From: a virus
Length of the DNA: 64,000 nt
Strand: one strand, 5' to 3'
IMG/VR virus record: IMGVR_UViG_3300023174_000064
Span: 82,038-146,037 of that record
A program made the position numbers and the translations under genes. Of this stretch, positions 35,015 through 64,000 are shown piece by piece. Below the pieces are notes generated by a model. That model was not told where the DNA came from, did not search any database, and was given only the letters and a program-made list of their open reading frames with translations. Position 1 is the stretch's first letter; each line of letters opens with the position of its first letter.

Positions 35015-35068
35015 ATTATATCTCCTAAATTAAAAAATGCAAACACAATCACAAATTTATTTATAAAA

Positions 35069-35099
35069 AAAATCTGTCCTTTTTAAAGGGACAGATTTT
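35069..35099 (-). terminator. Intrinsic terminator
   Basis: AAATCTGTCC...GGACAGATTT hairpin with U-run on the minus strand. Confidence 0.7.
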
Positions 35100-35126
35100 C
35101 ATCGAAAAACTCAATCAAAATTTAAC

Positions 35127-35399: not shown

Positions 35400-35512
35400 A
35401 ATAAAACCTTTCTAGAAATTTTAGGACATTCAGTTATTACCATTCACTGTCCTGTGATGAATGGCTTACGTTTAGTAAATATACACCCAAAATAACGAGT
35501 GTCAAGAAATAA

Positions 35513-35797: not shown

Positions 35798-36036
35798 TGC
35801 TTGTATTCCTTTCGTTCCTGATCACGCTTCTCGCAAATCAGTTGCCATTCCTTATCATCGTTTGGAAGATAAGTGGTGGCAGCAACATCAACTTCCACCA
35901 CAGTGGCTCGCCAACCGTCTGGAAGAACCACAACACTGCCGTGTTTCATTTCTTCGTTCATTCGTGTAACTTCTTGATTTAAAGAACGATTAGAAATTGT
36001 ATGATTTGGTCGAACTAGTAAAATCTTACGTGTCAT
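35794..36036 (-). CDS. Hypothetical protein
   Basis: Overlapping start/stop with neighbours. Confidence 0.6.
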   Translation of the reverse strand: MTRKILLVRPNHTISNRSLNQEVTRMNEEMKHGSVVVLPDGWRATVVEVDVAATTYLPNDDKEWQLICEKRDQERKEYKQ

Positions 36037-36473
36037 TACTTTTTCCTTTTTCTAAACAGAGCCGCAATTCCTGCTGCCACAATTAATGTGAGTGAAGCAG
36101 GAGCAGGTACAGCCGCTGTTGTAGTGCCTTCAGAAGGAGTTAGTGGTACGCCCAAACAAAATCCTTCTACCTGATCAAACGCAACTGAAATACAAAACTG
36201 TTGATCAGACATCTGGTATGTTCCAACCAACTCGCCGTTTAGGTACAACTTATAGACCCAAAGACCAACAGCTTCTCCGGTAAACATGGTATCGCTGTAT
36301 GTTGCCAGCGGAACTGTATTACCGGAAATAGAACCACCAAATTCGGTGGCCATTGACAGGGCTGGCTTAAACTGAGGAGGCTGTGTATACGCTTGTGTGG
36401 TATACATTGATCCTTCGTATGCAGCCCTATGTGAGAACTGTCCTTGTCCGTAAAATGTAGATGTAAAACCCAT
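36036..36473 (-). CDS. PEP-CTERM-like (VPAP) sorting-domain protein
   Basis: C-terminus VPAPASLTLIVAAGIAALFRKRKK: motif, TM helix, basic tail. Confidence 0.75.
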   Translation of the reverse strand: MGFTSTFYGQGQFSHRAAYEGSMYTTQAYTQPPQFKPALSMATEFGGSISGNTVPLATYSDTMFTGEAVGLWVYKLYLNGELVGTYQMSDQQFCISVAFDQVEGFCLGVPLTPSEGTTTAAVPAPASLTLIVAAGIAALFRKRKK

Positions 36474-36483
36474 AGTATTTAAG

Positions 36484-36566
36484 TAGGAGCGACAGGACTC
36501 GAACCTGCATGATCTTGCGACCAGAACGTTTTAAGCGTTCCGTGTATGCCATTCCACCACGCTCCC
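36484..36566 (-). tRNA. tRNA-Leu(TAA)
   Basis: GAACG-CTTAAAA-CGTTC; long variable arm. Confidence 0.92.
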
Positions 36567-36571
36567 AAAAG

Positions 36572-36644
36572 TGCCCCCTGTAGGAATTGAACCTACGACC
36601 TATAGATTAAAAGTCTACTGCTCTACCAACTGAGCTAAGAGGGC
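36572..36644 (-). tRNA. tRNA-Lys(TTT)
   Basis: GTAGA-CTTTTAA-TCTAT; canonical D and T arms. Confidence 0.93.
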
Positions 36645-49963: not shown

Positions 49964-50081
49964 GGGGGATCCATGGGGAAATCAGAAGGGGGGTATGGGG
50001 GTACCCTCTCGTATTTAAAAATTTAGAAACTGGGTGCAACCGGGGGATCCATGGGGAAATCGATAGGGGGGTATGGGGGGG
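49964..50081. repeat. G-rich direct repeat, 2 copies (GGGGGATCCATGGGGAAATC...AGGGGGGTATGGGGG)
   Basis: Copies start at 49964 and 50042. Confidence 0.85.
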
Positions 50082-50389
50082 TCTGCGTTATTAGAGGGAT
50101 GGATGGTGTCTCGACCGGGTAGACTTGCTAGCCCCGGATCCTTCCAGATGGGACCCGCTCCGTGCAACTGTCCGGACAGGACCCCCCTCCCCACGCTGTA
50201 TGCTTCCACCGCCCCCGGTGTCAACCGAAATGTTCTACAATCTTAATCTTAATAATTCAAAAAACTTTGTTAAGATTGTGTTAAGAAAAAAATCTGCATC
50301 TACTTCGCATCTACCCTATTGACTCGACTTGGCGACTTTGATATAGTGCACACATACCCATTGGGCCACAGGCCCGGAAAGACACTACC

Positions 50390-50833
50390 ATGCAGATCAA
50401 GCACCTCGTCTCGTCCGTCTTCACCGCCCTGAACCGCAGCATCACGGGCTACCGCCCGTTCTCGGCTCGTGACTGCCGGGTGGTGGAGACCAGCCGTTAC
50501 TCGCACGCGACCGACCGGGCCACGGGCAGCCGGGTGTACATGAGCAAGCCCGCGTCGGTGTTCTCGGGCACCACCGTCACCACGGGTGAGGTGCAGCGTG
50601 GCGACTCGGGCATCAGCCTGACCGTGTGCGAGAATGGCCGTGTGGTGTGGCGGGGCTGGGTCAAGGTGGAGGACGGCAAGGCGATCGCAGCCACCGTGAA
50701 CTCGGCCTGCATGAAGGCACAGCCTCGCACGGGCCGCGAGATGGCCAACACGGAGTGGGCCGACTTGGTTCGTGTGGCCGACCATGTGAAGGCCGACGCC
50801 CAGTACACCGCCTCGCTGTTCGACAACATCTAA
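50390..50833 (+). CDS. Early hypothetical protein
   Basis: Promoter, leader hairpin, GC3-rich codons, terminator follows. Confidence 0.75.
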   Translation: MQIKHLVSSVFTALNRSITGYRPFSARDCRVVETSRYSHATDRATGSRVYMSKPASVFSGTTVTTGEVQRGDSGISLTVCENGRVVWRGWVKVEDGKAIAATVNSACMKAQPRTGREMANTEWADLVRVADHVKADAQYTASLFDNI

Positions 50834-50843
50834 TGGTGGTGCG

Positions 50844-50876
50844 GGGAGGGGGGATGTTCCCCCCTCCCTCTTTCTT
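50844..50876 (+). terminator. Intrinsic terminator-like hairpin
   Basis: GGGAGGGGGGA-TGT-TCCCCCCTCCC then TCTTTCTT. Confidence 0.7.
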
Positions 50877-51037
50877 CCAACCCAACCAACGCGCCCGCCC
50901 CCGCTCTTCCTGCCTGTGTGAGTTCACCACAGCGAGGAGCCGGGGTGGCCCGCGTTGATAGTATTTGGTTATCAGTCTCGCAAATAAACTTGGAAATAGG
51001 GGTTGACACAGCACTCCCAACTTGTTAGAATGAACGC

Positions 51038-51334
51038 ATGACCACCAACAACAACAACCTTCCGCCCGTCGTTCAGATCGTGCTGCCCGTCACCACCGTC
51101 CGCAACCTGCTGACCCTGCTGGAAGAGTGCAGCAGCACCTGGTCGGTTGACACTGAAACTGTGACCGCCATCCGCCGCGAGTACACCAGCGAGATGATCC
51201 GCCACGGCATCATCCGCCCGAGCGAGGTGAGCGTGATGACCCCGGACGAGGATCACTCGCACGAGGACGCCACGCAGAACGAGTACGATGCGGACAACGC
51301 GTGGCTGCGCTCGGCAGGCTGGGGGGAAATGTGA
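51038..51334 (+). CDS. Leaderless early protein
   Basis: ATG 6 nt after TAGAAT. Confidence 0.75.
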   Translation: MTTNNNNLPPVVQIVLPVTTVRNLLTLLEECSSTWSVDTETVTAIRREYTSEMIRHGIIRPSEVSVMTPDEDHSHEDATQNEYDADNAWLRSAGWGEM

Positions 51335-51429
51335 TGATGTTCCTGCTCGGCCTGATCTTGTCCGTGGTGTTTGTTATGGGCATCGTGGCCCTAGATCACC
51401 TCACCTCCGAGTGGGGAAGTGGAGGCTGA
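51334..51429 (+). CDS. Small membrane peptide (31 aa)
   Basis: TGATG coupling; MMFLLGLILSVVFVMGIVALD. Confidence 0.5.
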   Translation: MMFLLGLILSVVFVMGIVALDHLTSEWGSGG

Positions 51430-51627
51430 TCTCACAAGCCGAACCGGGATTCGTCCCCTGCCACCCTTCGGGGTGGCTAGGCTTGTTGATAGTACAAGCT
51501 GGGTGTTCCGCTTGCTATTGTACCACGGGGGACTGGGCGTGTCAAGAGGGAAAATACCAAAAAAGAAAAAAAAGATTCCCCGTTCCACCCCCTTGACAAG
51601 CCACCCCCGATCCTGTATACTACCCGC

Positions 51628-51819
51628 ATGAACACCACCAACCCCATCTACGACAATGGCGACGACTCCTTCGACTGGCACGAGGAGGAGGAGGCCATGA
51701 CTCCCGAGCGGATCGCGGAGTTGGAGGAGTGTGTACGCCTCCACAATGCCGAGCAAAACGGCGAGTTTGTGGACCCGTACGGGTTCCACGAGGATCCCAA
51801 CCAAATGTACGACGAATAA
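51628..51819 (+). CDS. Leaderless acidic early protein
   Basis: ATG 6 nt after TATACT. Confidence 0.75.
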   Translation: MNTTNPIYDNGDDSFDWHEEEEAMTPERIAELEECVRLHNAEQNGEFVDPYGFHEDPNQMYDE

Positions 51820-51892
51820 GGCTTGACAAGCCTGTTCGGATCGTGTACACTACTTGAAACCCAACCGGGCCACAGGCCCAAAGGAAACCACC

Positions 51893-52201
51893 ATGTTTGA
51901 CGCTGCCACCATCGACCTGCACAACCTGCCCCCGGAACTGGATCGCATGGTTCAGACCCTGCTGATCGTGTCCCGCGAGGGCTGCACCGATGTCGGAGAA
52001 CTGATGCGACGCCTGTACGGAAATGTCTCCGACTACACCCCGAAGCAGCAGGACGAGTGCTGCACCCAGTACGCTCACATCCTGATGAAGATGTACGCGT
52101 GCAAGTGGATCACGGCTGCGGATGCCGAGTTCGTGGCCTTGACCGCCGCAGGCGTTGAAGCCGCCGACACCATGCGGGAGTTCTACCGGAACAACCCGTA
52201 A
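51893..52201 (+). CDS. Early protein, winged-helix-like
   Basis: AAGGA RBS; C-terminal LTAAG wing motif. Confidence 0.7.
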   Translation: MFDAATIDLHNLPPELDRMVQTLLIVSREGCTDVGELMRRLYGNVSDYTPKQQDECCTQYAHILMKMYACKWITAADAEFVALTAAGVEAADTMREFYRNNP

Positions 52202-52347
52202 CCGAAACACTGTGGTGGTGTCCAAGTCCCCTGATCAGAGGAGGGTCTGGTCAGGGGCAACCACCCCCAAACATCCCAGTCAAACGAACCCAGGCTTCGC
52301 AGGAGCCACCCCGGCCTAAACCACCGGGGCGGGTTTGTTGATAGTAT

Positions 52348-52420
52348 TGTTAAGATTGCGTTAAATTAATTTTGTGTTAAGATTTGGTTAAATTAATTTT
52401 GTGTTAAGATTTAATAAAAT
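52348..52420. repeat. AT-rich GTTAAGATT/GTTAAATTAA iterations (related blocks at 50269-50286 and 55115-55197)
   Basis: About 27-bp tandem unit; 33 bp identical between 52337 and 55104. Confidence 0.85.
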
Positions 52421-52552
52421 ATTTTAGGAGTCCACTTACTATTGTACCTCCTGGTTTATTGTGTGTCAATCCGGAAAATGCCCGGAATTTAAAAATAAAA
52501 ATCTGTGCCTGACCCCCTTGACAGGCGGGGCCGGATCCGGTATACTACCCGC

Positions 52553-52783
52553 ATGTGCAACACCACCACCACCATCTCCCCCGCCGCCTCCAACCTCGTT
52601 ATCACCTGCGTGGAACCCGAAATTTTTTGTGCGGAGTGTGGCTGTGAAATCTCGCCAGAAAACTGGCACTGTGCGCCCCAGTTTTGGGTGTATCGTTTCG
52701 GGGGTGGTCGCCACGAATGCTTGGAGTGCGGGAACGGCATTGAACCCGACGATCACGAACCGGGATTCGACCCTCAAGATTGA
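52553..52783 (+). CDS. Leaderless zinc-finger-like early protein
   Basis: ATG 6 nt after TATACT; CAEC..CLEC. Confidence 0.7.
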   Translation: MCNTTTTISPAASNLVITCVEPEIFCAECGCEISPENWHCAPQFWVYRFGGGRHECLECGNGIEPDDHEPGFDPQD

Positions 52784-52876
52784 GGGTTTTCTTTTTGTTG
52801 ATAGTACGGGCCGATAACCAGAACCCCCTCCACCGGGACTGGTTCCCAATGGAGGGGGCTGCGTTTGTTACCGGAC

Positions 52877-53029
52877 TTACCACTCGGTGTGGTCGATCCA
52901 CGGTTCCCAGTCATCGTGGCCGGGGTCGGTTGGCTCCTCGTTGTATTCCGGCCAGTTCTCTTGGAGGAACAGATCCTCGTTGTAGTCCGGGTGCTCCATG
53001 TCGTCGTCGGGGGTGGTGGGGTTCGTCAT
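52877..53029 (-). CDS. Leaderless very acidic peptide (50 aa)
   Basis: Minus promoter 53064-53036; MTNPTTPDDDMEHPDYNEDLFLQENWPEYNEE.. Confidence 0.7.
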   Translation of the reverse strand: MTNPTTPDDDMEHPDYNEDLFLQENWPEYNEEPTDPGHDDWEPWIDHTEW

Positions 53030-53136
53030 GCCCGGATTGTAACCGAAACTCCCGGCCCTGTCAAGAGGGAAACCAAATAAATTATTTCTGTGGCTACCCT
53101 ATTGACACAAGCCGGTCAGGTTGATATACTGCCTGC

Positions 53137-53301
53137 ATGAACCTCACCACCCAACTGATCAAGTATGAAGACGGCGAACTCACGCACGAAGAAACCGTGT
53201 GCCTGTTTCAGGAACTGCTCGACACAGGCATGATCGACCACCTGCAAGGCTCGTACGCTCGCGTGGCTCTGCACCTGTACAACAACGGCGAAATCGCCTG
53301 A
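53137..53301 (+). CDS. Leaderless early protein (54 aa)
   Basis: IKYEDGEL..EETVCLFQELLDTG...LQGSY.R, a recurrent phage family motif. Confidence 0.75.
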   Translation: MNLTTQLIKYEDGELTHEETVCLFQELLDTGMIDHLQGSYARVALHLYNNGEIA

Positions 53302-53313
53302 AAGGAACCCCCC

Positions 53314-53520
53314 ATGATCGTGAACATCTGCATCCATGTGCCTGACCTCGACCCCAACACCCCGTTGGCGTGGAACACCACCGACCGGATCGAACAGGAA
53401 CTGACCCCCGCCCTGCAACGGCTGACCGGATTCGGTCGGTACGGCAATTGGAACTGGTGGATCAATGTGGAGAACGGCGAAACCCGGTATATGCCGGAAA
53501 ATGTTTCGGAACTGTCTTGA
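53314..53520 (+). CDS. Early hypothetical protein
   Basis: AAAGGA RBS; stop lies within the next TTGACA. Confidence 0.65.
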   Translation: MIVNICIHVPDLDPNTPLAWNTTDRIEQELTPALQRLTGFGRYGNWNWWINVENGETRYMPENVSELS

Positions 53521-53551
53521 CACCGCACCCCGAACCGGATAGAATCCAACC

Positions 53552-53692
53552 ATGACCACCTGCCCCCGTTGCAACCACCCGGAAACCCCTGACCACCTGT
53601 CCGCATGGGAAGGTCTGTGCCAAAACTGTTGGGGGCAACTGGCCGAAGCCACCATGACCGACGAAGATCGGGAGTGGTTGGAAAAAAACTGA
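53552..53692 (+). CDS. Leaderless zinc-finger-like peptide (46 aa)
   Basis: ATG 6 nt after TAGAAT; CPRC..CQNC. Confidence 0.65.
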   Translation: MTTCPRCNHPETPDHLSAWEGLCQNCWGQLAEATMTDEDREWLEKN

Positions 53693-53744
53693 AATGTTTC
53701 AGAAACCGCTTGACATCGCACCCCAAACCGGATAGAATACACCC

Positions 53745-53999
53745 ATGACCACCAAGACCTACAACGGATACCGCAATGCAGCCACCTACCGCACCGCCCT
53801 GTGGCTCACCAACGAGGAGCCTCTGTACCGCACCATGGTTGAACACTTCCGCGAGGAGGAGATCACCACGGCGAACGCCCGGTTCTTCTGCAACCTGCTG
53901 TGGCCGTGTGCGGAGAACCCGGACGGCGACGAACTCGCTGATGTGTACTGGCCGGACATCGTTCGCGTCATCCAAGACTGCACCGACATCGAAAACTGA
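53745..53999 (+). CDS. Leaderless early protein (YNG..N..T...LW..N family)
   Basis: ATG 6 nt after TAGAAT; recurrent phage motif. Confidence 0.75.
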   Translation: MTTKTYNGYRNAATYRTALWLTNEEPLYRTMVEHFREEEITTANARFFCNLLWPCAENPDGDELADVYWPDIVRVIQDCTDIEN

Positions 54000-54041
54000 A
54001 CTTTTTTACTAACCCCAAACCCCAAGGAAGGGAACCTCACT

Positions 54042-54284
54042 ATGCCACGAGTCACCGCCAATCTGAAGTCTTTCACTCCCCGTCACGGCAAGATCCGGAT
54101 CACTTTCGCCCTGATGTTTATGAAGGGCAAGGGCTACGAGTACTCGGGTCGCGGCAAGATTGCCTCCTCCCGTAACAAGTGGCGGCCCGAGCGTGCCTAC
54201 TTCTTCACGAACCGTGCCACCGGACAGCGGCTGACCCTGACCACCTCTGATCTGCGTCAGGCGTTTGCCACCGGAACCGTCTAA
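54042..54284 (+). CDS. Basic early protein
   Basis: AAGGAAGG RBS. Confidence 0.65.
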   Translation: MPRVTANLKSFTPRHGKIRITFALMFMKGKGYEYSGRGKIASSRNKWRPERAYFFTNRATGQRLTLTTSDLRQAFATGTV

Positions 54285-54591
54285 CAAAGCCTGTGCCACG
54301 GGCTAAAGTGGCCGGGTTGGCCGTTTGCCTGCACCAAAAACGGCCCAGTCGCCCGTCTTGAATACTGGTAAAGGTTTGGAATCACCTACTTGAGGACTTC
54401 CCGCTTTTCCCCTTGAGTGTTATCAAGGGGTTTTTTCATTTCCGGAAAGTTGATAGTATTTAATTTAACCCAGACACTGTATTATATCACAGATTCCGGA
54501 ACCTGTCAAGTGGAAAACCGCCCGGAATAAAAAGATTTATTTCTGCGGTATAGGGCTTGACAAACCAACCCGGATGGTGTAGAATGACCAC

Positions 54592-54912
54592 ATGGAAACC
54601 ACCAACACCATCCCGGCCTGTCCGAACCCCAACCTGTACGAGTTCATCATCCGCGTGCGTGACCGTCGTCGCAAGACGGGCTATCGGGTTGTGGTGACCG
54701 AACAGCGAGAGTTCCCGGATGCCGACACCGCAAAGATTTACGCAGAGAAGATGGAAGGCACAGACGGTCGCTACATTGTGGAGTTTCATCAGTTTTGGGT
54801 GCTGAAGCAGAACTTCATGGCCTCACAGCCCGGGTTCCCGGCGTACTTTTGGGAGGCGTACAACACCCCGTACTGCTGCTCTCCTGCATCCGAACTGTAC
54901 TGGACGATGTGA
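54592..54912 (+). CDS. Leaderless early protein
   Basis: ATG 6 nt after TAGAAT; C-terminal NTPYCCSPASELYW motif. Confidence 0.75.
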   Translation: METTNTIPACPNPNLYEFIIRVRDRRRKTGYRVVVTEQREFPDADTAKIYAEKMEGTDGRYIVEFHQFWVLKQNFMASQPGFPAYFWEAYNTPYCCSPASELYWTM

Positions 54913-55647
54913 ACCAAGGGTGGCCGTACTCCCGGATTCCGGAATCCTAACGGCCTGCGTTGTACTGTGTAAGAGTCAACAGTACCGGGTGTGGAACCAC
55001 CTGTCCCAAGGTTCTAGGGAATGGGAACGCCCTATCGGAATCTCCCCGCCTTCTATTGGGTTCTTGAGCGTATCAAGAACCCTTTTTTATTATCGGACCA
55101 GGAGTTGATAGTATTGTTAAGATTGCGTTAAATTAAGATTGTGTTAAGTTTCGGTTAAGATTGGATTAATTTAAGTTTGTGTTAAGATTTGATTAACCGG
55201 AAAGTGGTCAGCCCGCCCTCCCAGCCCGATCTAGGGTAACACAGCAGGCGGAACCTGTCAACCCTGAAACCTCCCAGATTCTCAAAATTAATTTATTGGG
55301 ATTGCAGAATACTATCAACCCGCCCAGATCATCCCCGTACCTGTAGTGTACCACACTCTGCCTCCTCTGTCAACCCCCAAAATACCCGGAATGTAACAAA
55401 TAATTCTCGAGAAAATTTCAGATATTGGAGGATTCTGCTTGACTGGAAGAATCCGGGGTATGGGACGGCTGGGATGTGTGTGTTTGCGAGATAACCCGGA
55501 CATTCTCAAATATATTTCAGAATCTTACCCCACTTCCCCCCATTTCAACCCACTTTGAAATCGCCGATCAGCGTCGAGCATTATCAGACTCAAAAAATCC
55601 GCATTTCACCCCTTGACACCACGCCCCGGATCGGTTAGACTACCCCC

Positions 55648-55929
55648 ATGACCACCTTCACCTCATCCCGTTGGCGAAACCACCCGACCTACCTGTGTGC
55701 GTTGGAGGTGGAGATGGCGACCATCCCCGGCCCTGCGTTCGGTGCGTTCTTGGACTCCAATCCCGACCACCGCGACCACCATGAGGACACGGGCGAGTAC
55801 ACCATCTCGCCTGCGGCAGTCCGTGAGTGGTTCACCCTGAACCGTGCCGACCTGTTTGGCCCCGGTGACACCGATCTTGTGGACTGGACTGCCGTTGCCG
55901 CCTACATGGACACTTGGAACTGGTTCTGA
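55648..55929 (+). CDS. Leaderless early protein
   Basis: ATG 6 nt after TAGACT. Confidence 0.72.
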   Translation: MTTFTSSRWRNHPTYLCALEVEMATIPGPAFGAFLDSNPDHRDHHEDTGEYTISPAAVREWFTLNRADLFGPGDTDLVDWTAVAAYMDTWNWF

Positions 55930-55985
55930 AAAAAATCTGTTTCTTCCTCTTGACAAACACCCCAACACCTGATAGGATACACCCC

Positions 55986-56375
55986 ATGACCACCGTGACC
56001 TCCACCGCGCTCACCGCTCGCACCTCTGACCACCGATGGGATGATGACCTTCAAGCCGCCTACGCCGCAGGGAATGCCGCAGCGAACGCGATTGAGGTGG
56101 TTCCCATGACCGTGGTGGGCCGTGACCGCACCTACTGGGTGGAAGGCGGCGTGTGCGGGTTCGCTCGCGTCGAGGTTCGGCCTCGCACTTCTGCATGGGC
56201 CAAGTGGCTGCTGGCCACCGGGTGGCGTTCATCGGACTACTTCAAGTGCGTCACGCTGAACATTGACGGCTTCGGCCAGTCCATGCAGCGGAAGGAAGCG
56301 TTCGCCCAAGCGTTTGTTGACCACCTGACCCGGTTGGGCTACCCCGGCGTGTCGTACACCGCCACCATCGACTGA
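55986..56375 (+). CDS. Leaderless early protein
   Basis: ATG 7 nt after TAGGAT; GVCGFA.V...QSMQRKEAFA.AF motif. Confidence 0.75.
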   Translation: MTTVTSTALTARTSDHRWDDDLQAAYAAGNAAANAIEVVPMTVVGRDRTYWVEGGVCGFARVEVRPRTSAWAKWLLATGWRSSDYFKCVTLNIDGFGQSMQRKEAFAQAFVDHLTRLGYPGVSYTATID

Positions 56376-56427
56376 AAAAATCCAAAAAGTTCTTGACCAC
56401 CCCACCCCTGAAAGGTACAATCCTCCC

Positions 56428-56727
56428 ATGAGAATCACCGCCAACCGATTGGAAACCCGTCTTGCGTTCATCAACCGTATGCTGGGCCGTCCTGCCACCC
56501 CGTACACCTACACCGCCAAGACTGTGGCCAATGTCGGCTGCTGGTACTTGAGTGCCAGCGAGTACGGGTACGAGGTGCTGGAGATTGTGACGGAGTCGGG
56601 TGGTGTCCAAGTGGTGTACCCGGCCATGCGTCCCAGCATCCTGTACGCCGTGCTGGGCGGGTTCTTGGACGGCATCAAGGCTCGTGGAACGGTGGATGAA
56701 GCCTACGCCACCACCTGTTCCATCTGA
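56428..56727 (+). CDS. Leaderless early protein
   Basis: ATG 6 nt after TACAAT. Confidence 0.75.
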   Translation: MRITANRLETRLAFINRMLGRPATPYTYTAKTVANVGCWYLSASEYGYEVLEIVTESGGVQVVYPAMRPSILYAVLGGFLDGIKARGTVDEAYATTCSI

Positions 56728-56781
56728 AATAAATCCATTTTCCCTCTTGACACCACGCCCAACCCCGGATACAATCCATCC

Positions 56782-57045
56782 ATGACCTTGACCACCACCA
56801 TCCAGTACTTGCGAAACAACGAAATCATCACTTCGGAAACCCGCAGTTTCCGGGGCAGGTGGATCGGAAACATTGAACGCAAGGCGATGCACCACGCCCA
56901 AGGTGACAGGCTGTTTGTGTACTGCAACCGGATCAACATCCTGTGTGAACTGCCGCACGGTGGCGTGAGCAACACCACATGGATTCTGACCCACCCGGTT
57001 CGACCGCTTGCAGAACTTGAATCAAAGTGTTTGGAAACTGCTTGA
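56782..57045 (+). CDS. Leaderless early protein
   Basis: ATG 6 nt after TACAAT; stop in next TTGACA. Confidence 0.7.
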   Translation: MTLTTTIQYLRNNEIITSETRSFRGRWIGNIERKAMHHAQGDRLFVYCNRINILCELPHGGVSNTTWILTHPVRPLAELESKCLETA

Positions 57046-57076
57046 CACCCCAACCCCTGAAAGGTAAACTACACCC

Positions 57077-57403
57077 ATGAAATGCCCCACCAACCTGCTG
57101 CCTGAAAACCTGCCGCAAGACTTCGTGCAAGCGGCTGCCGTTTGCATCACCATCCAAGCGTTCGACAACATCCCGTGCCATGTGCAAGCGATCTACGACG
57201 GCCTGTACGGGGATGCGGTTGACCCGGATGCCGCCAAGCGGGAGTTGAGCCGGATGCTGGCCCGGATGGTTCGTGTGGGCCTGATCACCATGCCCAGCCA
57301 GTCCGGTACGGTGATCCTGACCGATAAGGGCGACGAAGCCGCCACCACATTCCGCGAGTTGTGGGTGGGTTCCGGCATCCTCGATCTGTCCGACCTGTGC
57401 TGA
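57077..57403 (+). CDS. Leaderless winged-helix-like early protein
   Basis: ATG 6 nt after TAAACT; GLI...ILTDKG. Confidence 0.7.
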   Translation: MKCPTNLLPENLPQDFVQAAAVCITIQAFDNIPCHVQAIYDGLYGDAVDPDAAKRELSRMLARMVRVGLITMPSQSGTVILTDKGDEAATTFRELWVGSGILDLSDLC

Positions 57404-57523
57404 AAAAATCTGAAAAAGGGACTTGACATGATCGACTTTCTGTGTTACACTACCGCTGTGATGATTGCCACTCCGTTGGTGGCAACCTTCGTGACCTACT
57501 ACAGCCATGAGGACTTCTGACCC

Positions 57524-57730
57524 ATGACCACTCACACCATCATCGTGTTTCCCGACGGGGAAACTTGGAACACGGCAGATGGCTCTGCCATCATGGTCAT
57601 CACCGACCAGCAGTTCCGTGATCTGATTGAAGGCCGCATCAACGCAGGAGACATTCCGGCGATTGCGTCCATCTCGCTGGCAGACTTCACACCCGGCCCC
57701 CGCAACGGCTCACAGGAGAACACCAAGTGA
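57524..57730 (+). CDS. Early hypothetical protein
   Basis: GAGGA RBS. Confidence 0.65.
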   Translation: MTTHTIIVFPDGETWNTADGSAIMVITDQQFRDLIEGRINAGDIPAIASISLADFTPGPRNGSQENTK

Positions 57731-58005
57731 ACCACACACGGCCACCCATCCTGCCCGCAGCACGCAGTCGGATACTGCCTGTGCGGTGGTGCATGGAAGT
57801 GCTGTGGTGGGCTGGCTGGATTCACGAACGCACCATGACCATTGGTGGTTATCGGACTTACATCTGCCTCGACCCGGCAGGCCGGGTGAACTACCTGACC
57901 ACCTACGGGCTGCGACAGGCTGCATACGAGAACTACAGCAAGTACTGGCAAGAAAATCACTACCTCTTGACAACACCTCCAACACAAGGTACAATCCACA
58001 CATGA
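57727..58005 (+). CDS. Early hypothetical protein
   Basis: GTGA coupling. Confidence 0.5.
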   Translation: MNHTRPPILPAARSRILPVRWCMEVLWWAGWIHERTMTIGGYRTYICLDPAGRVNYLTTYGLRQAAYENYSKYWQENHYLLTTPPTQGTIHT

Positions 58006-58154
58006 TGAATCCGCAAGGCAAATGGTGCATCTACGATCCGCGACTCGACGGCTTTATTGCCGAATACTCCACCATGCTGGAGGCCCGGTCGTGGCTCGAC
58101 ATGACGCAGCCACCTGATACTGAACTGACTGTTGTGTTCGTGCCCGGTAACTAA
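58002..58154 (+). CDS. Leaderless early peptide (50 aa)
   Basis: ATG 6 nt after TACAAT. Confidence 0.65.
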   Translation: MMNPQGKWCIYDPRLDGFIAEYSTMLEARSWLDMTQPPDTELTVVFVPGN

Positions 58155-58175
58155 CCCCAAACAGAAAGAACCCCG

Positions 58176-58457
58176 ATGCTGCCTGAAGAACCTGACATGA
58201 CCATGAGCGAACTTCACGAGATGCTGGCCCAAGAACTGCCGCCTGCCAAGATTGAGAGGGCGGTGGAGGACTTGATTGCCAAAGGCATGGTGGAAACGCT
58301 GTGGGATGCTGACGGCAATGTGTCCTACCGCCTGACTGCCATCGGTCGTGTGGTGGGCAAGGCGATCAACGACCAGTACCAGTACGACACCGAACAGCAC
58401 GACGGCTGGCTGGGTGACGGCTGGGATGACGAGGGCTGGGATGACGGAGAAATCTGA
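58176..58457 (+). CDS. Winged-helix-like protein with acidic tail
   Basis: LIAKGMVE...YRLTAIG. Confidence 0.65.
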   Translation: MLPEEPDMTMSELHEMLAQELPPAKIERAVEDLIAKGMVETLWDADGNVSYRLTAIGRVVGKAINDQYQYDTEQHDGWLGDGWDDEGWDDGEI

Positions 58458-58512
58458 AATAGTTTCAGATTCACTATTGACACACGCTGCAACACCGGAT
58501 ACAATCCACACC

Positions 58513-58785
58513 ATGAAGAACCCCCAATTCAACGACGAGTTCGATCACACCAACGATGACGGGTACTACCAGTTTCAAGACTCGCAGGACATCCGCGACG
58601 AGTGGCTGCGTGAGGAGGAAGAGTACTGGAGCGAGGGCACACTCGACCCGGCAGACTCCGGCGAGTACGACCCGGTGGACGAGTCCGATAACTCTGAAGC
58701 CACCGATGAGTGGAGTGACGAGGACATGGACGAGACTCCCATCGGCCTTGAGTACGACGGGTACAACGATCCCGATAACTTCTGA
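58513..58785 (+). CDS. Leaderless extremely acidic protein
   Basis: ATG 7 nt after TACAAT; D/E dominated. Confidence 0.72.
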   Translation: MKNPQFNDEFDHTNDDGYYQFQDSQDIRDEWLREEEEYWSEGTLDPADSGEYDPVDESDNSEATDEWSDEDMDETPIGLEYDGYNDPDNF

Positions 58786-58902
58786 ACATTGCGGCTCTCA
58801 CTTGCAGGACTACGCTCTCCTTCGGGAAGCCTGCTTGAGAGTTGTGAAAAAAAGTTTGGTTTCCCTCTTGACACCACACACCCAATCGGGTACAATACAC
58901 AC

Positions 58903-59076
58903 ATGAACAAGCCTGTCACCATCACCCTGACCAACAAGCAAGCACACCTGATGCTGGACTACTTGAGCGATCTTCACTTCGATGGAGAAGCCCAAGTGTA
59001 CAACGAGGATGTGCCTGACCTGCGAACCATTGTGGACACCTTGGCTGACACCATCGAACAAACGGAGAACGCATGA
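58903..59076 (+). CDS. Leaderless early protein
   Basis: ATG 6 nt after TACAAT. Confidence 0.7.
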   Translation: MNKPVTITLTNKQAHLMLDYLSDLHFDGEAQVYNEDVPDLRTIVDTLADTIEQTENA

Positions 59077-59291
59077 CAGACGAAGCAGACAACGACGAAG
59101 GCAACCCCAGCACCGCGAAGCGAGCCACCTACCATATCATCATCGAAGCCAGCGATGTGGAGGACACCGAGTTTCAGGTGGAGGAAGTGAACGACCTGAC
59201 CGAACAACTGGGCCGGATGCTTTCATTCAACGGCACGGTGTGGCTGGACGAGGTGGAGTACGACGAGGACACCAACGAGGAGGAAGTCTGA
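59073..59291 (+). CDS. Acidic early protein
   Basis: ATGA coupling. Confidence 0.65.
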   Translation: MTDEADNDEGNPSTAKRATYHIIIEASDVEDTEFQVEEVNDLTEQLGRMLSFNGTVWLDEVEYDEDTNEEEV

Positions 59292-59560
59292 TGGCAACGC
59301 TGCGAGCCTGTTACTTGAACGATCCCAACGCGATCCGTGACTTCATGGTGCGCCATGTGGTGTTCCGTGTGAAGTTCCGCAAGAAGGATGGCACGATCCG
59401 TAGCCTGCTGGGCACGGTGGAGCCGGGGTTTCTTGGTGTGAACACACCAAACGGCACAGGCAATCCGAACTATGACGAAGCCATCCCTGTCTACGACATG
59501 GAGAGGCAAGCATGGCGTGCGTTCAAGCCGGACAATGTGTTGGAACTTCACTCTGTCTGA
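59291..59560 (+). CDS. WYL-like/SH3 (DUF2693-type) protein
   Basis: VKFRKKDGTIRSLLGT...VYDMERQAWRAFK. Confidence 0.78.
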   Translation: MATLRACYLNDPNAIRDFMVRHVVFRVKFRKKDGTIRSLLGTVEPGFLGVNTPNGTGNPNYDEAIPVYDMERQAWRAFKPDNVLELHSV

Positions 59561-59630
59561 AATAATTTCAGAAATCACTTGACACTCACCCCAAACTGTG
59601 GTACAATCCACACAACGAAAGGACACACAC

Positions 59631-59957
59631 ATGACGAACGACCAATGGAAACTGTGGGAAGACAGCATGGCACTTGCACCTGAAATCACGACGGCAATGT
59701 TCAATGCCCGCGTGAAGGAGATGACGCAGGCCGAAGTGATTGACCTGTCTCGTTGCCTGCTGACCGTGACTCGCTGCATTGAGAGTCTCGCTGCTGGCCG
59801 CATCACGGAGAAGCGTGATGTGGAGGACTTGGCTGACCTCACCATGAGCATGATGAGCGGAATGTACGGCAGGCTGATGGGGTTGGCAAGGGCGTATGAC
59901 ACGCTCATCACCAAGCAGGTGATGCTGGAGGCTGAACTGGCCTCGACGGGGAAGTGA
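59631..59957 (+). CDS. Early hypothetical protein
   Basis: Promoter plus AAAGGA RBS. Confidence 0.7.
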   Translation: MTNDQWKLWEDSMALAPEITTAMFNARVKEMTQAEVIDLSRCLLTVTRCIESLAAGRITEKRDVEDLADLTMSMMSGMYGRLMGLARAYDTLITKQVMLEAELASTGK

Positions 59958-60026
59958 TACTGGTTTGGGGTTGCCTGCCGCCGGATGAAACACTCCGGCG
60001 GTAGGTTTATGGAGGAAGCACACTCA

Positions 60027-60230
60027 ATGTACATCGTTCTCGCTGTGGCAATCCTTGCCACCATCATCGTTCTTGGCATCCAGTTTGTTCTGTTCGTGAT
60101 CGACCACGAACGCCGCGAACAACTCCGCGACCTGTACGAAGCCAAGCAGGACAAGTTCCTGAATGTGTACACCAAGTCCGATAACAACAGCAAGTACCGC
60201 AAGACCAAGCAGACCAAGCGAAAGAAATAA
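60027..60230 (+). CDS. Small single-TM protein
   Basis: GGAGG RBS; N-terminal hydrophobic helix. Confidence 0.6.
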   Translation: MYIVLAVAILATIIVLGIQFVLFVIDHERREQLRDLYEAKQDKFLNVYTKSDNNSKYRKTKQTKRKK

Positions 60231-60293
60231 TTTCAGAAGTGGGCTTGACACACACCACACCTTGTGGTACAATCCCAGCACGAAGGAAACACC

Positions 60294-60890
60294 ATGACAA
60301 CCCCCAAGTTCAACATCGTCCAAGTGTACGCCAGTCTGAACGCCAAGCCCGGAGGCTCGCAGCACACTCGTCTGCTGTGTGTGGAGATGGGCATTGTGTT
60401 TGTGACTGTCACCTCGCCTGCCACAGACGGTGGTTGGACTTCACAGTACCTGTGGTGCTGGCCCCGTGTGAACGGTCTGTCTCAAACATGGCTGCTGGGT
60501 GACAACATCGGCGGCAAGGACGGCAAGCCGTGGACACGCAACGATCCCAACACAGCGGTGGACGGCATGGGCATTCCATACGCTCACACCGATGCGGTGG
60601 CACACATCACCGCGCTGGCAGCAGCCGGGTATGTGGATTGGAGCAAGGCTGCCTACAGCGGCAGACCGATTCCCAATCTGTTCAGCGATGCCACCCTGAT
60701 GCCACAGTCTTACGCCAAGGTGACTCCACCCGGCAAGCCCACGCAACGACAGGCTTCCAACGATCCGCTGCAAGTGCAGGGACAAAGCCCGGTTCACGAA
60801 ATCGCTGATCTCATCAACTCGTTGGGGATTCAGACTGTGTTTCCCACCACCGAAGATATGAACGCCATCAGCAAGATGAACCCGCTATGA
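60294..60890 (+). CDS. Early hypothetical protein
   Basis: Promoter plus AAGGA RBS. Confidence 0.72.
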   Translation: MTTPKFNIVQVYASLNAKPGGSQHTRLLCVEMGIVFVTVTSPATDGGWTSQYLWCWPRVNGLSQTWLLGDNIGGKDGKPWTRNDPNTAVDGMGIPYAHTDAVAHITALAAAGYVDWSKAAYSGRPIPNLFSDATLMPQSYAKVTPPGKPTQRQASNDPLQVQGQSPVHEIADLINSLGIQTVFPTTEDMNAISKMNPL

Positions 60891-61222
60891 AGAATCCAAA
60901 CATGACATCACAGGAATACATGGAACGGTTGCGTGAGGAAGGTGCAGCAGGCATCGGGTGGTTCAACCACCGTGGCGTGCGGTACACTCTGAAAACCAGC
61001 AGGCGAAATACCATCCCGGTGCAGACCGCACTTCACATTCTGTTGCTGGAAGGATGGACGGATGTGGAGTACTACACCGCACTTCGGGTGTACCGTGCCC
61101 GGAACCCGGATGGTGAATGGGTCGATATGTCGGTGGACACCGTGCGGTGGACTGCACTTCACATTGTGTACTGTGGAATGAAAAAGACGAAAAGTTCATT
61201 TGACAACCCGCAACCTGTGTGA
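60887..61222 (+). CDS. Early hypothetical protein
   Basis: ATGA coupling. Confidence 0.6.
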   Translation: MKNPNMTSQEYMERLREEGAAGIGWFNHRGVRYTLKTSRRNTIPVQTALHILLLEGWTDVEYYTALRVYRARNPDGEWVDMSVDTVRWTALHIVYCGMKKTKSSFDNPQPV

Positions 61223-61234
61223 TACAATACCACC

Positions 61235-61435
61235 ATGCCAAAGCGACACATCGACCAATTCGACATTGAAGCAGAGCGTGAAGGTGCAGCCGTGCGTCTG
61301 TCCGGCCAGCAGGTGTGCAAGCCGTTTGGCTATGGCCGTGGTATCACCAAGCAGCGTCGAATGCAGAAGGACGGCGCAGCCAAGGTGGAGTGCCGTACCA
61401 TCAAGCAATCGTTCGGAAAGTTTTCCTATGCGTAA
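61235..61435 (+). CDS. Leaderless basic early protein
   Basis: ATG 6 nt after TACAAT. Confidence 0.65.
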   Translation: MPKRHIDQFDIEAEREGAAVRLSGQQVCKPFGYGRGITKQRRMQKDGAAKVECRTIKQSFGKFSYA

Positions 61436-61640
61436 GTGCATGAAGTGTGACTGCGAGATTCCTGCTGTTCGGTTGGAAGCCCTGCCGTACACCACGACCT
61501 GTGTGAAGTGCAGCACCACCAAGGCATATGTGGGGTTCATGTCATTTGCCCACAAGACCGCCCCCGACATTGTGATGGTCAACCCTGATGACAGGGAGAA
61601 CTTGCGTCGGGCTGTGGCGATCCATGAAAGGCGACGATAA
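61428..61640 (+). CDS. TraR/DksA C4-type zinc finger protein
   Basis: CMKCDCEIPAVRLEALPYTTTCVKC. Confidence 0.8.
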   Translation: MRKCMKCDCEIPAVRLEALPYTTTCVKCSTTKAYVGFMSFAHKTAPDIVMVNPDDRENLRRAVAIHERRR

Positions 61641-61930
61641 TGTGCAACACATGGCGTGAACGATACGGCCCAGCAGTAGACTCCGATCAGACTGTGGAGT
61701 GTGTGATGTGTGGTTACACACTACATGGCGATGATCCACCAATCGGCGTGGTGTGTCTTGATTGCTGGAATGGTGGTCAGATTCTCCGTGACCGCGTGGT
61801 GTGCAACGGCTGTGCGTCCGATAACGGATGGCACGGCGACAAGACCACCACCGATACACACCCTGATGGATTCACCTGCGATGAGTGTGGCGAAACTTTC
61901 CCTTGCGAAAATCTTTCGGAAAACACTTGA
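61640..61930 (+). CDS. Cys-rich early protein
   Basis: TAATG coupling; four CxxC motifs. Confidence 0.6.
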   Translation: MCNTWRERYGPAVDSDQTVECVMCGYTLHGDDPPIGVVCLDCWNGGQILRDRVVCNGCASDNGWHGDKTTTDTHPDGFTCDECGETFPCENLSENT

Positions 61931-61961
61931 CACCCACCACTCCCTGTGGTACAATACACAC

Positions 61962-62171
61962 ATGAGCAACGACGATCTCGACCACCTGTGCAAGATGCTG
62001 CAAAACTCCCACGACACCGCCTCCAAGGTGACTGGCATGGATGACACCATGTTCTTGCAGGCGTTGGATGGCATCAAGTGGCTGCGTGCCAAGTTGAAGC
62101 AGTACCAGCGAGCAGAGGCAGCAGCCGCAATGGATCGGCTGTCACAGTTTGACGAGGAGAACGGCCTGTGA
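61962..62171 (+). CDS. Leaderless early protein
   Basis: ATG 6 nt after TACAAT. Confidence 0.7.
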   Translation: MSNDDLDHLCKMLQNSHDTASKVTGMDDTMFLQALDGIKWLRAKLKQYQRAEAAAAMDRLSQFDEENGL

Positions 62172-62419
62172 ACAACCCATACAACGAACTACCACACCCG
62201 GTGTTCCTGCGATATGTGGCACAGAACGACTACATGATCGACGGGTACTACCTGCCGGAAGGTGTGCGACTGAACGCAGCGGCGGATGAACTGGAGTCTC
62301 TACAGATTCGGTACGACGAACTGTGGAAGGCACACCAGCGGCTGGCACAGACCTGCAAGGAAGCAGAGGAGCGTGTTGACACTCTCCTAGAGCGTGTGAA
62401 AGAACGAGTACGCCCATGA
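62168..62419 (+). CDS. Early coiled-coil protein
   Basis: GTGA coupling. Confidence 0.6.
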   Translation: MNNPYNELPHPVFLRYVAQNDYMIDGYYLPEGVRLNAAADELESLQIRYDELWKAHQRLAQTCKEAEERVDTLLERVKERVRP

Positions 62420-62748
62420 GTGACTACAAGCAGGCTGAACACTATGCAGGCATGAGCATCGAACGATGGGAAAGCCTGATGAAGAAGGTGGACGCAAACA
62501 CCGCAAGTGATGCAGACTTGACACCGGGCGAGCGTGGTGCTGGCTGGCACTTCTGCTCGCTGGGCTGGGATGGTCTGCTGATCTCTCCCATCGACTTGGA
62601 GTACAAGCATTGCGGATGCCCGGACAAGCAGCACCACAAGCGGGAGGCTTCATACTATGAACGGCTGCTGAAGGTAAAGCAATGGATCAAAGCAGAACCA
62701 CGAGACTACCCCCAAGACTTTCAAGAAAAGTTTGGAAATAAGGATTGA
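62416..62748 (+). CDS. Early hypothetical protein
   Basis: ATGA coupling; GWHFC..WDGLLI motif. Confidence 0.65.
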   Translation: MSDYKQAEHYAGMSIERWESLMKKVDANTASDADLTPGERGAGWHFCSLGWDGLLISPIDLEYKHCGCPDKQHHKREASYYERLLKVKQWIKAEPRDYPQDFQEKFGNKD

Positions 62749-62779
62749 CAACATCCACAACCTGTGGTACAATACACAC

Positions 62780-63124
62780 ATGACCAAGACCAAAGCCAAG
62801 ATCGTTTCGCACAAGCCGAAGTTCCTGCCACTCAACCGTCCTGTCAAGGGCACGGTGGGCCTGCAAGTTCACTTCGACGGCTACGCTCTGCCCAACTTTG
62901 GCGAGAGCGACACGGAGGTAGAAGTTCTCCGTGACATCCGTGAGGAGTTGGGCAAGCCGTTCAACAAGCGGATTGTGTACGCAGGCGATGGTGGTTCGAT
63001 GGACTACTTCTACATGGAGTGGGAAGGCAAGCCCAAGGACATGGCTCGTCTTGCCAAGTGGTTCCGTGAGGGCGACCAGTATCCTTTGCTCGCCATTCAC
63101 ACCGTGGAAATCTTCAAGATTTGA
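62780..63124 (+). CDS. Leaderless early protein
   Basis: ATG 6 nt after TACAAT. Confidence 0.72.
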   Translation: MTKTKAKIVSHKPKFLPLNRPVKGTVGLQVHFDGYALPNFGESDTEVEVLRDIREELGKPFNKRIVYAGDGGSMDYFYMEWEGKPKDMARLAKWFREGDQYPLLAIHTVEIFKI

Positions 63125-63161
63125 TCTTGACACACACCCAAACATCAGGTACAATACACAC

Positions 63162-63593
63162 ATGACCAAGACCAACAACAACCGTGTGCGAGCCAAGGCC
63201 CGCAAGTCCCCGAAGTCTCTCCGTGATCTGAACACGGCCAAGATGAATGCCGTGATGTACAAGTTCATCCCGGCTGTCTACGATCTCCATGTGGAGTTCA
63301 CACTCACGGGCGATCAGGACTTGAATGATCCGGTGGACTTCCTGCCACGCAACCTGTCTCGACTGGAGATGGGTAGCGGTTACTGCATGATGACGGGAAT
63401 GCGTGACTTTCACTTCCGTGGCACAGAGCAGGAGATGAAGAACATCATGCGCCAGTTCTGTTCCAGCCCGTTCAAGGTGTACAAGTTCTATGTGTACCCG
63501 GACGGAGATCACTTCAACGAGTTCAACGACAGCGTGCGGCAGAAGGCGTTTGCCCGTGCAGAGCGTCGGGCCAAGACCAAGAGGAGCAAGTGA
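63162..63593 (+). CDS. Leaderless early protein
   Basis: ATG 6 nt after TACAAT. Confidence 0.72.
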   Translation: MTKTNNNRVRAKARKSPKSLRDLNTAKMNAVMYKFIPAVYDLHVEFTLTGDQDLNDPVDFLPRNLSRLEMGSGYCMMTGMRDFHFRGTEQEMKNIMRQFCSSPFKVYKFYVYPDGDHFNEFNDSVRQKAFARAERRAKTKRSK

Positions 63594-63892
63594 TGGACGG
63601 CATCATCAGCACATTCAAGTCTCGCTACGGCGACACACGCACCGTGACCCAACTGGACGAGGAGACTCTGATCCTTGAAGGCACAACCATGTACACCCGT
63701 GGAAGTGATGGTGATGACGGGCAACTCATGGTGGACTTTGAGGGTGGCCCGTTCCTGACCAAAGGCATGGACATCCGGGTACACTTGGGATGCCCGATGG
63801 ATGGTGTCATCAAGACCATGCGGTTCCTGCCCAGCGACCGACCCAACCACGCCAAGGTTGAGGTGAAGATCAAGCCCGGTCAGCAGCGTTGA
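63593..63892 (+). CDS. Early hypothetical protein
   Basis: TGATG coupling; SRYGD.R...VDFEGGPFL motif. Confidence 0.7.
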   Translation: MDGIISTFKSRYGDTRTVTQLDEETLILEGTTMYTRGSDGDDGQLMVDFEGGPFLTKGMDIRVHLGCPMDGVIKTMRFLPSDRPNHAKVEVKIKPGQQR

Positions 63893-63958
63893 AACTGCCC
63901 CGGCCACTTTGACGGCTGTGTGCGTACAACCGTTCGTGTTGACTTATTCATCGGCCTT

Positions 63959-63991
63959 GCCCCCTCCGTTATGGGGGCTTTTTTGTTTTTT
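63959..63991 (+). terminator. Intrinsic terminator
   Basis: GCCCCC...GGGGGC followed by TTTTTTG. Confidence 0.75.
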
Positions 63992-64000
63992 GTTGATAGT

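Follow-up and report, generated by a model that had tools for sequence, protein, structure and literature searches.

Mobile regulatory cassettes known as promoter-early stem-loops (PeSLs) occur in T4-type phages (Arbiol et al. 2010, PMC2839356; Comeau et al. 2014, PMC4122927). They join a sigma-70 consensus promoter and the AT-rich tract upstream of it to a stem-loop terminator, are associated with ORFan genes and with indels between relatives (PMC2839356), and mediate gene shuffling ahead of ORFans in hyperplastic regions (PMC2839356; PMC4122927). The replication origins of T4 are placed near transcription-strand switches; oriF and oriG consist of a promoter and an AT-rich unwinding element of ~100 bp, and oriE of an early promoter with evenly spaced iterons (PMC3016281). 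The present analysis concerns a stretch of DNA of 64,000 nucleotides from a freshwater T4-like phage, referred to as the window, which corresponds to bases 82,038-146,037 of the 146,037-bp record IMGVR_UViG_3300023174_000064 (~80% complete). Its GC-rich early region contains a series of leftward (minus-strand) promoters of the form TTGACA-N17-TAnnnT, several of which lead to a repeated 10-mer, GTTGATAGTA. On comparison of sequences from relatives, these promoters are conserved as promoters, the geometry of the unit to which they belong is fixed, and the leftward arm usually carries no gene. Their most likely role is a local one in a two-way boundary cassette, through a mechanism that we infer.

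Leftward promoters and their conservation

Six strict promoter matches and one weaker site were located on the minus strand of the early region:

51517-51545, minus strand: L1, TTGACA-N17-TACAAT, gene-less, with the -10 at 22 nt from the 10-mer at 51485
52441-52469, minus strand: L2, -10 TACAAT, gene-less, followed by 100 nt of TTAA repeats with ~80% A+T and then by the 10-mer at 52337
53036-53064, minus strand: L3, the sixth strict match, which drives a 50-aa gene and serves as an internal control
54481-54509, minus strand: L4, 12/12 consensus with a TG-extended -10, gene-less, with the -10 at 22 nt from the 10-mer at 54449
55233-55261, minus strand: L5, TTGACA-N17-TACCCT, mostly TG-extended, with an invariant G-rich transcript start
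55345-55373, minus strand: L6, -10 TACACT, reading an inverted 10-mer 25 nt past the -10 and then continuing through L5
55290-55318, minus strand: a weaker, putative promoter-like site, TTGATA-N17-TAAATT, whose -35 belongs to the inverted 10-mer

The first-pass annotation had reported five of these promoters at the positions listed here; L3 had gone unlisted. L1, L2 and L4 stand back-to-back with a gene promoter, as that annotation had described, and the same is true of L3. The matches are far in excess of chance: 31 were counted in the whole window against 3.8 expected, and six on the minus strand of 50,000-56,500 against 0.012 expected (5000 Markov simulations, with a maximum of 1).

Conservation was followed in about nine related freshwater metagenome contigs from several samples. 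They were reached through homologues of a 106-aa early protein; two further contigs came from a DNA-pattern scan of metagenomes anchored on the non-coding hub described below, being the only true relatives among its 16 matches. One viral contig also shares the early region, and of the many related viral contigs returned by a terminase-based search it is the only one to do so. The more distant relative G003 has the leaderless promoters and lacks the 10-mer system. Nucleotide and protein searches of a phage database found no close cultured relative for the early region or for a tail protein.

In five groups of orthologous leftward promoters from independent assemblies, variable columns amounted to 3/60 in the hexamers versus 45/85 in the spacers (Fisher p = 2e-10). 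Retained hexamers together with diverged spacers are the expected signature of working sigma-70 promoters. In the orthologous L1 module of contigs L098 and L099, the hexamers are kept and 10 of the 17 spacer columns have changed, and among eight orthologues of L4, variation affects 1/12 hexamer columns and 10/17 spacer columns. L5 occurs in nine contigs with an invariant TACCCT as -10, either TTGACA or TTGACG as -35, and a spacer variable at 16 of 17 columns. The weaker site at 55290-55318 likewise retains its hexamers in five relatives, with a spacer that varies. L3 is kept in L090, L096, L099, L102 and L120. L2 is present in L102 and L120 and missing in L090 and L096, where the repeat array stays; L6 is absent in L100 and L101, where the -35 of L5 stands instead.

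About 26 plus-strand promoters of the same TTGACA-N17-TAnnnT type lie within the GC-rich block. An ATG is found 6-7 nt past the -10 in 20 of the 26, and their messages are therefore leaderless. None of the five reported leftward promoters has an ATG at this site. The start-type codons found nearby are a GTG 5 nt past the -10 at 52441, shared with the L102 orthologue, and one ATG in a single L096 copy, and neither of them opens a conserved open reading frame (ORF). Antisense ORFs behind the five show a G+C content at third codon positions (GC3) of ~0.5, versus 0.75-0.88 in real genes; small ORFs behind the leftward promoters were rejected on account of this low GC3 and of their lack of conservation in relatives. 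The gene behind L3 (53029-52877), by comparison, encodes 50 aa, is leaderless with an ATG 6 nt past the -10, and has a GC3 of 0.86 like other early genes. Start-codon, GC3 and conservation evidence bears out the earlier statement that no credible ORF follows the five. The evidence supports the view that they are genuine, selected promoters without protein cargo.

The spacer of L4 (54487-54503) holds the palindrome TTCCGGAA, and the tract upstream of this promoter (54520-54528) holds ATTCCGG. The two sequences flank the L4 -35 and could form an operator; the arrangement is partly conserved.

Geometry of the divergent unit

The leftward promoters are set between rightward promoters on one side and terminator hairpins on the other:

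51593, plus strand: promoter match, rightward partner of L1
52518, plus strand: promoter match, rightward partner of L2
53102, plus strand: promoter match, rightward partner of L3
54557-54585, plus strand: rightward partner of L4, which drives the leaderless 106-aa gene
54409-54430, plus strand: intrinsic terminator ahead of the 10-mer, its minus side without a T-run
51460-51477, plus strand: equivalent hairpin preceding the 10-mer
52309-52329, plus strand: equivalent hairpin preceding the 10-mer
52769-52788, plus strand: equivalent hairpin preceding the 10-mer
55058-55082, plus strand: equivalent hairpin preceding the 10-mer

Within the window, the gaps from -35 to -35 are 47, 48 and 47 bp in the gene-less L1, L2 and L4 units and 37 bp in the 53064/53102 pair. 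Sixteen gene-less modules were compared: 14 of them have a gap of 47 bp and the other two have gaps of 46 and 48 bp, whereas the gene-bearing pair shows 37-38 bp. The spacer between the two -35 elements follows a shared consensus, with an A-tract where the UP element of the rightward promoter would sit and a conserved CCCGGAAT. Given this rigid -35/-35 spacing, the leftward and rightward promoters are the two arms of one divergent unit of fixed geometry. The distance from the leftward -10 to the 10-mer is 19-23 nt, mostly 22, in 12 distinct short modules. The sequence lying between them is unrelated across modules, which form about five sequence families as read from their flanks. The stems of the terminators are preserved in relatives by compensatory changes.

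Two further descriptions in the first-pass annotation hold for the predicted leftward transcripts. Four of them run through the 10-mer in reverse and enter a plus-strand hairpin from behind, and two, from 52469 and 55261, cross the AT-rich repeats. The transcript from 55373, which lies behind 55261, crosses them as well.

The 10-mer as a boundary

The junction 10-mer has nine exact copies in the 146-kb record, eight in plus and one in minus orientation, all of them in the GC-rich early region:

51485-51494, plus strand: junction 10-mer GTTGATAGTA, with other plus-strand copies at 50954, 52337, 52797, 54449 and 55104
55310-55319, minus strand: inverted copy of the 10-mer
G000:C1:3646 and G000:C1:4152: further copies, outside the window

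The relatives hold 42 distinct exact copies, nearly all of which lie 0-25 nt past a plus-strand terminator hairpin or T-run. A leftward -10 stands at 19-23 nt in only 12 of the 42 (a count read from the table). As read from the same table, what follows the 10-mer is of four kinds: an TTATCGGAC-like element with a gene promoter 39 nt on, a leftward promoter, a TTAA array, or a convergent terminator. The 25 nt on either side of each 10-mer were clustered. One upstream flank joins two or three downstream modules, and vice versa, and the similarity stops exactly at the edges of the 10-mer. The same sequence stands at the left and at the right edge of the early block as a whole. By these comparisons, the 10-mer behaves as a DNA-level boundary mark and as the seam where relatives exchange modules. 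Because flanks are swapped at its edges and copies occur without a promoter, it is not a specific part of the leftward RNAs.

A function of the 10-mer as a general plus-strand promoter element was rejected: the next base is T or C, and only the repeat-type copies have a matching -10. Integron-like core, IHF, DnaA-box, NtcA and Fur-type sites, compared by reading the sequence, did not fit, and a literature search for the 10-mer sequence returned only unrelated primers.

Read rightward, the TTGATA of the 10-mer stands 18 nt before a TAAATT at 55105-55134 and at 52338-52367, and a weak rightward promoter of this kind could converge on L5 or L2 across the repeats. A second repeated element, the 9-mer TTATCGGAC, has eight copies in the early block and none elsewhere, and often flanks the 10-mer. 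Its copies are found at positions 55090, 57849, 58683, 60176 and 61816 of the window and at G000:C1:3630, 3661 and 3683. Four copies are intragenic, three of these as the codons Ser-Asp-Asn, and the three at G000:C1:3630-3691 could give alternative hairpins around the 10-mer. The right edge of the early block (G000:C1:4152-4270, outside the window) has the 10-mer followed by a pair of GTTATAGGAC repeats. With them stands a late promoter box of the T4 type (TATAAATA), which precedes the first AT-rich gene.

A proposed two-way boundary cassette and its likeness to PeSLs

In the explanation favoured here, the leftward promoters form an arm of a divergent unit of ~120 bp, and this unit, together with the terminator and the 10-mer, would constitute the exchangeable boundary of early micro-gene cassettes. 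The explanation as a whole, which takes the leftward promoters to be authentic early promoters of the host sigma-70 type, has about an even chance of being correct. A promoter of identical type, L3, drives a real leaderless gene. The gene-less leftward arm would give a short-lived, untranslated RNA, which reaches the 10-mer at ~+17 to +26 and, beyond it, the preceding terminator from behind, and the arm would act locally, not in trans. It could oppose read-through out of the upstream cassette, its RNA could pair as a duplex with the 3' end of the upstream message, or it could be a topological partner of the rightward gene promoter, with which it would share the A/T-rich upstream tract. Spacing this constant suggests joint action of RNA polymerase and a reader of the 10-mer. 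The reader may be a protein that binds there and blocks the way, or sigma binding again at the TACTAT within the 10-mer.

Several features of the locus agree with those of PeSLs. The early promoter matches the sigma-70 consensus and has an AT-rich tract ahead of its -35, the hairpins and T-runs before the 10-mer supply a stable stem-loop terminator, and the unit lies in a hyperplastic region ahead of ORFan genes. The breakpoints of indels and replacements between relatives fall at the unit, with the 10-mer as the left seam and the promoter as the right one. Other features differ. The promoter unit is two-way with rigid geometry, whereas a PeSL promoter is one-directional; the left seam is a strictly invariant 10-mer and not the promoter-hairpin itself; the genes are leaderless, unlike those of PeSLs with their Shine-Dalgarno site; and the region is GC-rich within an AT-rich genome. 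The formation of encapsidated mini-circles is a further feature of PeSLs. In its features, the boundary unit is best described as PeSL-like, differing by its divergent promoter, its invariant seam, its leaderless starts and its position in a compositional island.

Some points weigh against the boundary explanation. That the leftward promoters fire, and how long and how stable their RNAs would be, are predictions from the DNA. No DNA-binding domain was recognised among the early proteins that would make one of them a candidate reader of the 10-mer. Ten identical bases are few for homologous exchange, and a dedicated enzyme may be conceivable. The need for insulation is weak, because the downstream genes are leaderless and read-through RNA would probably not be translated. 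The strongly conserved transcript start of L5 shows a sequence-specific role of at least one leftward unit, for which the model gives no explanation. Classical PeSLs, moreover, run in one direction and end in a Shine-Dalgarno site.

The non-coding hub and its possible role in replication

The region around L5 and L6 differs from the short modules in its content:

55085-55650: non-coding hub, with TTATCGGAC, the 10-mer, repeats, a G-quadruplex (G4) motif, L5, L6 and invariant blocks up to the next gene promoter
52350-52414: TTAA array 1, TTAA-N7-TTAA units with the 8-mer TTAAGATT in an 11-bp phase, directly past the 10-mer
55117-55196: TTAA array 2, longer, between the 10-mer at 55104 and L5
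55212-55227, minus strand: G4 motif made up of four G3 runs (loops of 2, 1 and 1 nt), at the predicted start of the L5 transcript, ~6-21 nt past its -10

The hub lies in a gap of 735 bp (54913-55647), which no other non-coding stretch of the early region equals in length and which, in an alignment of five relatives, is conserved block by block. The hub holds no conserved ORF, a 39-aa frame being broken by an indel, and consensus folding of both strands gave no informative covariation. In the repeat arrays, the TTAA positions are retained and the inner 7-mers differ among relatives. The copy number and orientation of array 2 vary: part of it is inverted in L096 and L099, and it is absent in L100 and L101. 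The first 23 nt past the L5 -10 are invariant in nine contigs except for one loop base in L100 and L101. No other strict G4 motif occurs in the early region, and the whole 146 kb holds just one more locus of the quadruplex type, a tandem run of G3 blocks on the plus strand at G000:C1:79003-79050, outside the window. G-richness at the 5' end is limited to the L5 and L6 transcripts, with skews of +0.27 and +0.62 versus -0.27 for gene transcripts. As to the DNA downstream, L2 is followed by 79-80% A+T over 100 nt and L5 by AT-rich DNA after its 25-nt G-rich start; behind L4 the AT-rich stretch covers ~30 nt only, and behind L1 the A+T content is 40-50%. To the right of L6, at 55380-55610, there are invariant non-coding blocks that include a -35-like TTGACT, then a G-rich run and a C-rich run; neither a conserved ORF nor covariation was found in them.

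The first-pass annotation had proposed that the five promoters make up a cluster of R-loop replication origins. As a set of five this is not supported, L1 having no AT-rich element and L4 one of ~30 nt; it is possible for the hub and perhaps for the unit at 52469. In its reduced form, the proposal would be a transcription-activated origin at the hub, perhaps also at the 52469 unit, comparable to oriF, oriG and oriE of T4. The G-rich start of the leftward RNA would form a stable hybrid or quadruplex, open the AT-rich repeats, and prime or activate replication. We consider this somewhat unlikely and put it forward tentatively. It accords with a gap of this size whose blocks are conserved in all relatives that cover the hub, and with the invariance of L5 and its G4 motif in nine contigs while the L5 spacer varies. 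The single G4 motif of the early region and the confinement of G-rich 5' ends to the L5 and L6 RNAs, with AT-rich DNA next to them, point the same way. TTAA units in an 11-bp phase, with fixed positions and changing inner bases, copy number and orientation, behave like iterons, and the 100 nt of ~80% A+T behind L2 also fit. The repeats of the hub are missing, however, in L100 and L101 and are therefore not essential there, and L1 and L4 have no unwinding element. No initiator gene was recognised in the phage, and the cumulative GC skew tracks gene orientation, its minimum lying ~4 kb off, and is uninformative on an origin. Replication of T4-like phages is, moreover, mostly driven by recombination, which also speaks against such an origin. 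On balance, the hub is the best origin candidate in the region.

In its succession of promoter, G-cluster and AT-rich phased repeats, the hub resembles transcription-primed origins as well as oriE, oriF and oriG of T4. The likeness to the T4 origins is partial. L2 and L5 fire into AT-rich DNA and, as in oriE, an early-type promoter stands beside evenly spaced repeats; the hub lies a few kb from a transcription-strand switch. Such repeats, in an 11-bp phase, accompany L2 and L5 but not L1 and L4, and they are absent in L100 and L101. In contrast to oriF and oriG, all five promoters are of the early type (consensus TTGACA as -35, 17 nt) and not MotA-dependent middle-mode promoters. Two of the five lack an unwinding element, the repeats are dispensable in some relatives, and the G4 motif at the RNA start has no T4 counterpart. 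Another comparison concerns the repeats themselves. Response regulators of the OmpR/PhoB/CtrA type recognise TTAA half-sites placed one helical turn apart. In the TTAA-N7-TTAA units, conservation is confined to the TTAA positions; the units resemble such arrays and provide a lead, but the phage encodes no such regulator. Since this DNA-binding domain is absent from the phage, a host regulator or an early protein may bind the repeats.

A bolder form of the origin proposal, which we hold to be unlikely, treats the hub as a new type of origin primed by a G4-containing RNA and, alongside, the 10-mer as the core site of a dedicated enzyme for cassette exchange. The G4-led RNA would lock an RNA-DNA hybrid beside the helically phased repeats and would prime replication. 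Mitochondrial conserved sequence block II (CSB II) and ColE1 primers are models for priming of this kind. As for the enzyme, an integron-like array is expected to come with a site-specific recombinase gene, and a search for tyrosine and serine recombinase domains found none in the 146-kb record, which is 80% complete.

Less likely explanations: paused polymerases, small RNAs and orphan promoters

A different explanation would place the function in the polymerase itself. Promoter and 10-mer would jointly keep RNA polymerase from moving on shortly past the start, and the stalled enzyme, not the RNA, would be the product, either forming a barrier next to the terminator or giving a modifying factor a place to load. 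Escape would be prevented by sigma re-binding the -10-like TACTAT at ~+17 to +22 or by a protein bound to the 10-mer. Lambdoid late promoters, at which sigma-dependent pausing close to the promoter is established for -10-like elements, supply a precedent; there as here, the non-template strand carries a -10-like hexamer a short and fixed distance past a strong promoter. TACTAT occupies this strand at ~+17 to +22 in 12 modules, taking the start site as predicted. The constrained 19-23 nt spacing, with intervening sequences unrelated between module families, is consistent with such a device, and the 10-mer read leftward opens with a hexamer that fits the phage's own -10 family. Yet all ten bases are invariant, which exceeds the need of sigma, and many 10-mers have no promoter or lie 67-119 nt from one, behind repeats. 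The element stands at ~+17 and not at +1 to +15 as in the lambdoid pause sites. Neither an antiterminator-like gene, a Q-like factor or its binding site, nor a conserved site between -35 and -10, where the spacers vary, was found. This explanation is decidedly unlikely.

The first-pass annotation had offered, as an alternative to origins, a family of small RNAs sharing a 10-nt motif. Such RNAs would act in trans on host or phage targets through a 10-nt seed, or their AAUCUUAAC units would serve as a sponge for a protein. In all relatives, each gene-less leftward promoter leads to a copy of the 10-mer, which in the short modules lies at a fixed distance from the predicted 5' end, and the window RNAs of L4 and L1 fold better than shuffled sequences (z = -2.8 and -3.8) and better than the plus strand. 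The larger part of the evidence goes the other way. Most copies of the 10-mer have no leftward promoter directly before them (12 of 42 do have a leftward -10), and its complement in the phage is restricted to the same junction loci. Across relatives, only the plus-strand terminator hairpin covaries; the strand difference in folding energy has no consistent sign, and the minus-strand hairpin of the window L4 RNA was dropped because it is not conserved. No minus-strand intrinsic terminator that would define a 3' end was found past the leftward promoters, and Rfam gave only tRNAs and one match at chance level, without a ribozyme. Some repeat units are inverted (L096, L099) or absent (L100, L101), which argues for recognition as DNA and against an RNA sponge. 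The small-RNA family is not supported and is very unlikely, and a protein sponge made of the repeats is unlikely as well.

The view that the promoters are functionless remnants of divergent gene pairs like 53064/53102, their leftward genes lost by cassette shuffling, is disfavoured and hardly probable at all: one pair does retain its gene and shuffling at the 10-mer could remove leftward cargo, but hexamers are kept against diverged spacers in many lineages, the distances that separate the promoters from the 10-mer and from their partners are held within narrow limits, and the gene-bearing pair has a gap of 37-38 bp versus 47 bp.

Genome context and composition

The record encodes T4-like structural proteins, namely baseplate proteins resembling gp6 and gp53 and a large terminase, which shares 55% identity with its counterpart in S-PM2, one of the T4-like cyanophages. 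The GC content is 27-45% in most of the genome and 50-59% in positions 50,000-64,000 of the window and in the first 4.2 kb of the record. The GC-rich early region thus occupies the last 14 kb of the contig and its first ~4 kb, and consists of leaderless micro-genes. An assembly chimera at the GC switch was rejected, because three other independent assemblies show the same switch. Seven phage tRNA genes (30,841-36,644 of the window) read AT-rich codons. These features suggest an AT-rich phage in a high-GC host, with early genes matched to the composition and machinery of the host.

The early micro-genes encode 46-198 aa, and none of them matches a family of known function. Neither a recognisable DNA-binding domain among the early proteins, nor a response-regulator DNA-binding domain or psbA among the phage proteins, was found. 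A 42-aa hydrophobic ORF at 51301-51429 of the window overlaps the stop of the preceding gene; it is missing in relative G001 and is therefore an inserted micro-gene.

Biological meaning

In large lytic phages, genes for host takeover and counter-defence turn over fastest in the early regions. The locus described here presents a compact grammar for such turnover, made of a terminator, an invariant 10-mer, a two-way promoter and a leaderless gene, and the seams between the swappable parts are visible at single-base resolution in several independent metagenomes. It offers a defined synthetic unit in which the interplay of divergent promoters, boundary element and leaderless starts could be studied. 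The 570-bp hub adds an origin candidate in a phage group that has no cultured member or known origin. If the G4-primed origin were true, the hub would represent a kind of origin not described for T4-like phages, and if a dedicated exchange enzyme existed, the early region would be an integron-like gene-capture array in a lytic phage. A possible account of the composition is that the GC-rich early genes are built for the unmodified machinery of a high-GC host, and that the AT-rich remainder of the genome comes with tRNAs of its own for AT-rich codons.

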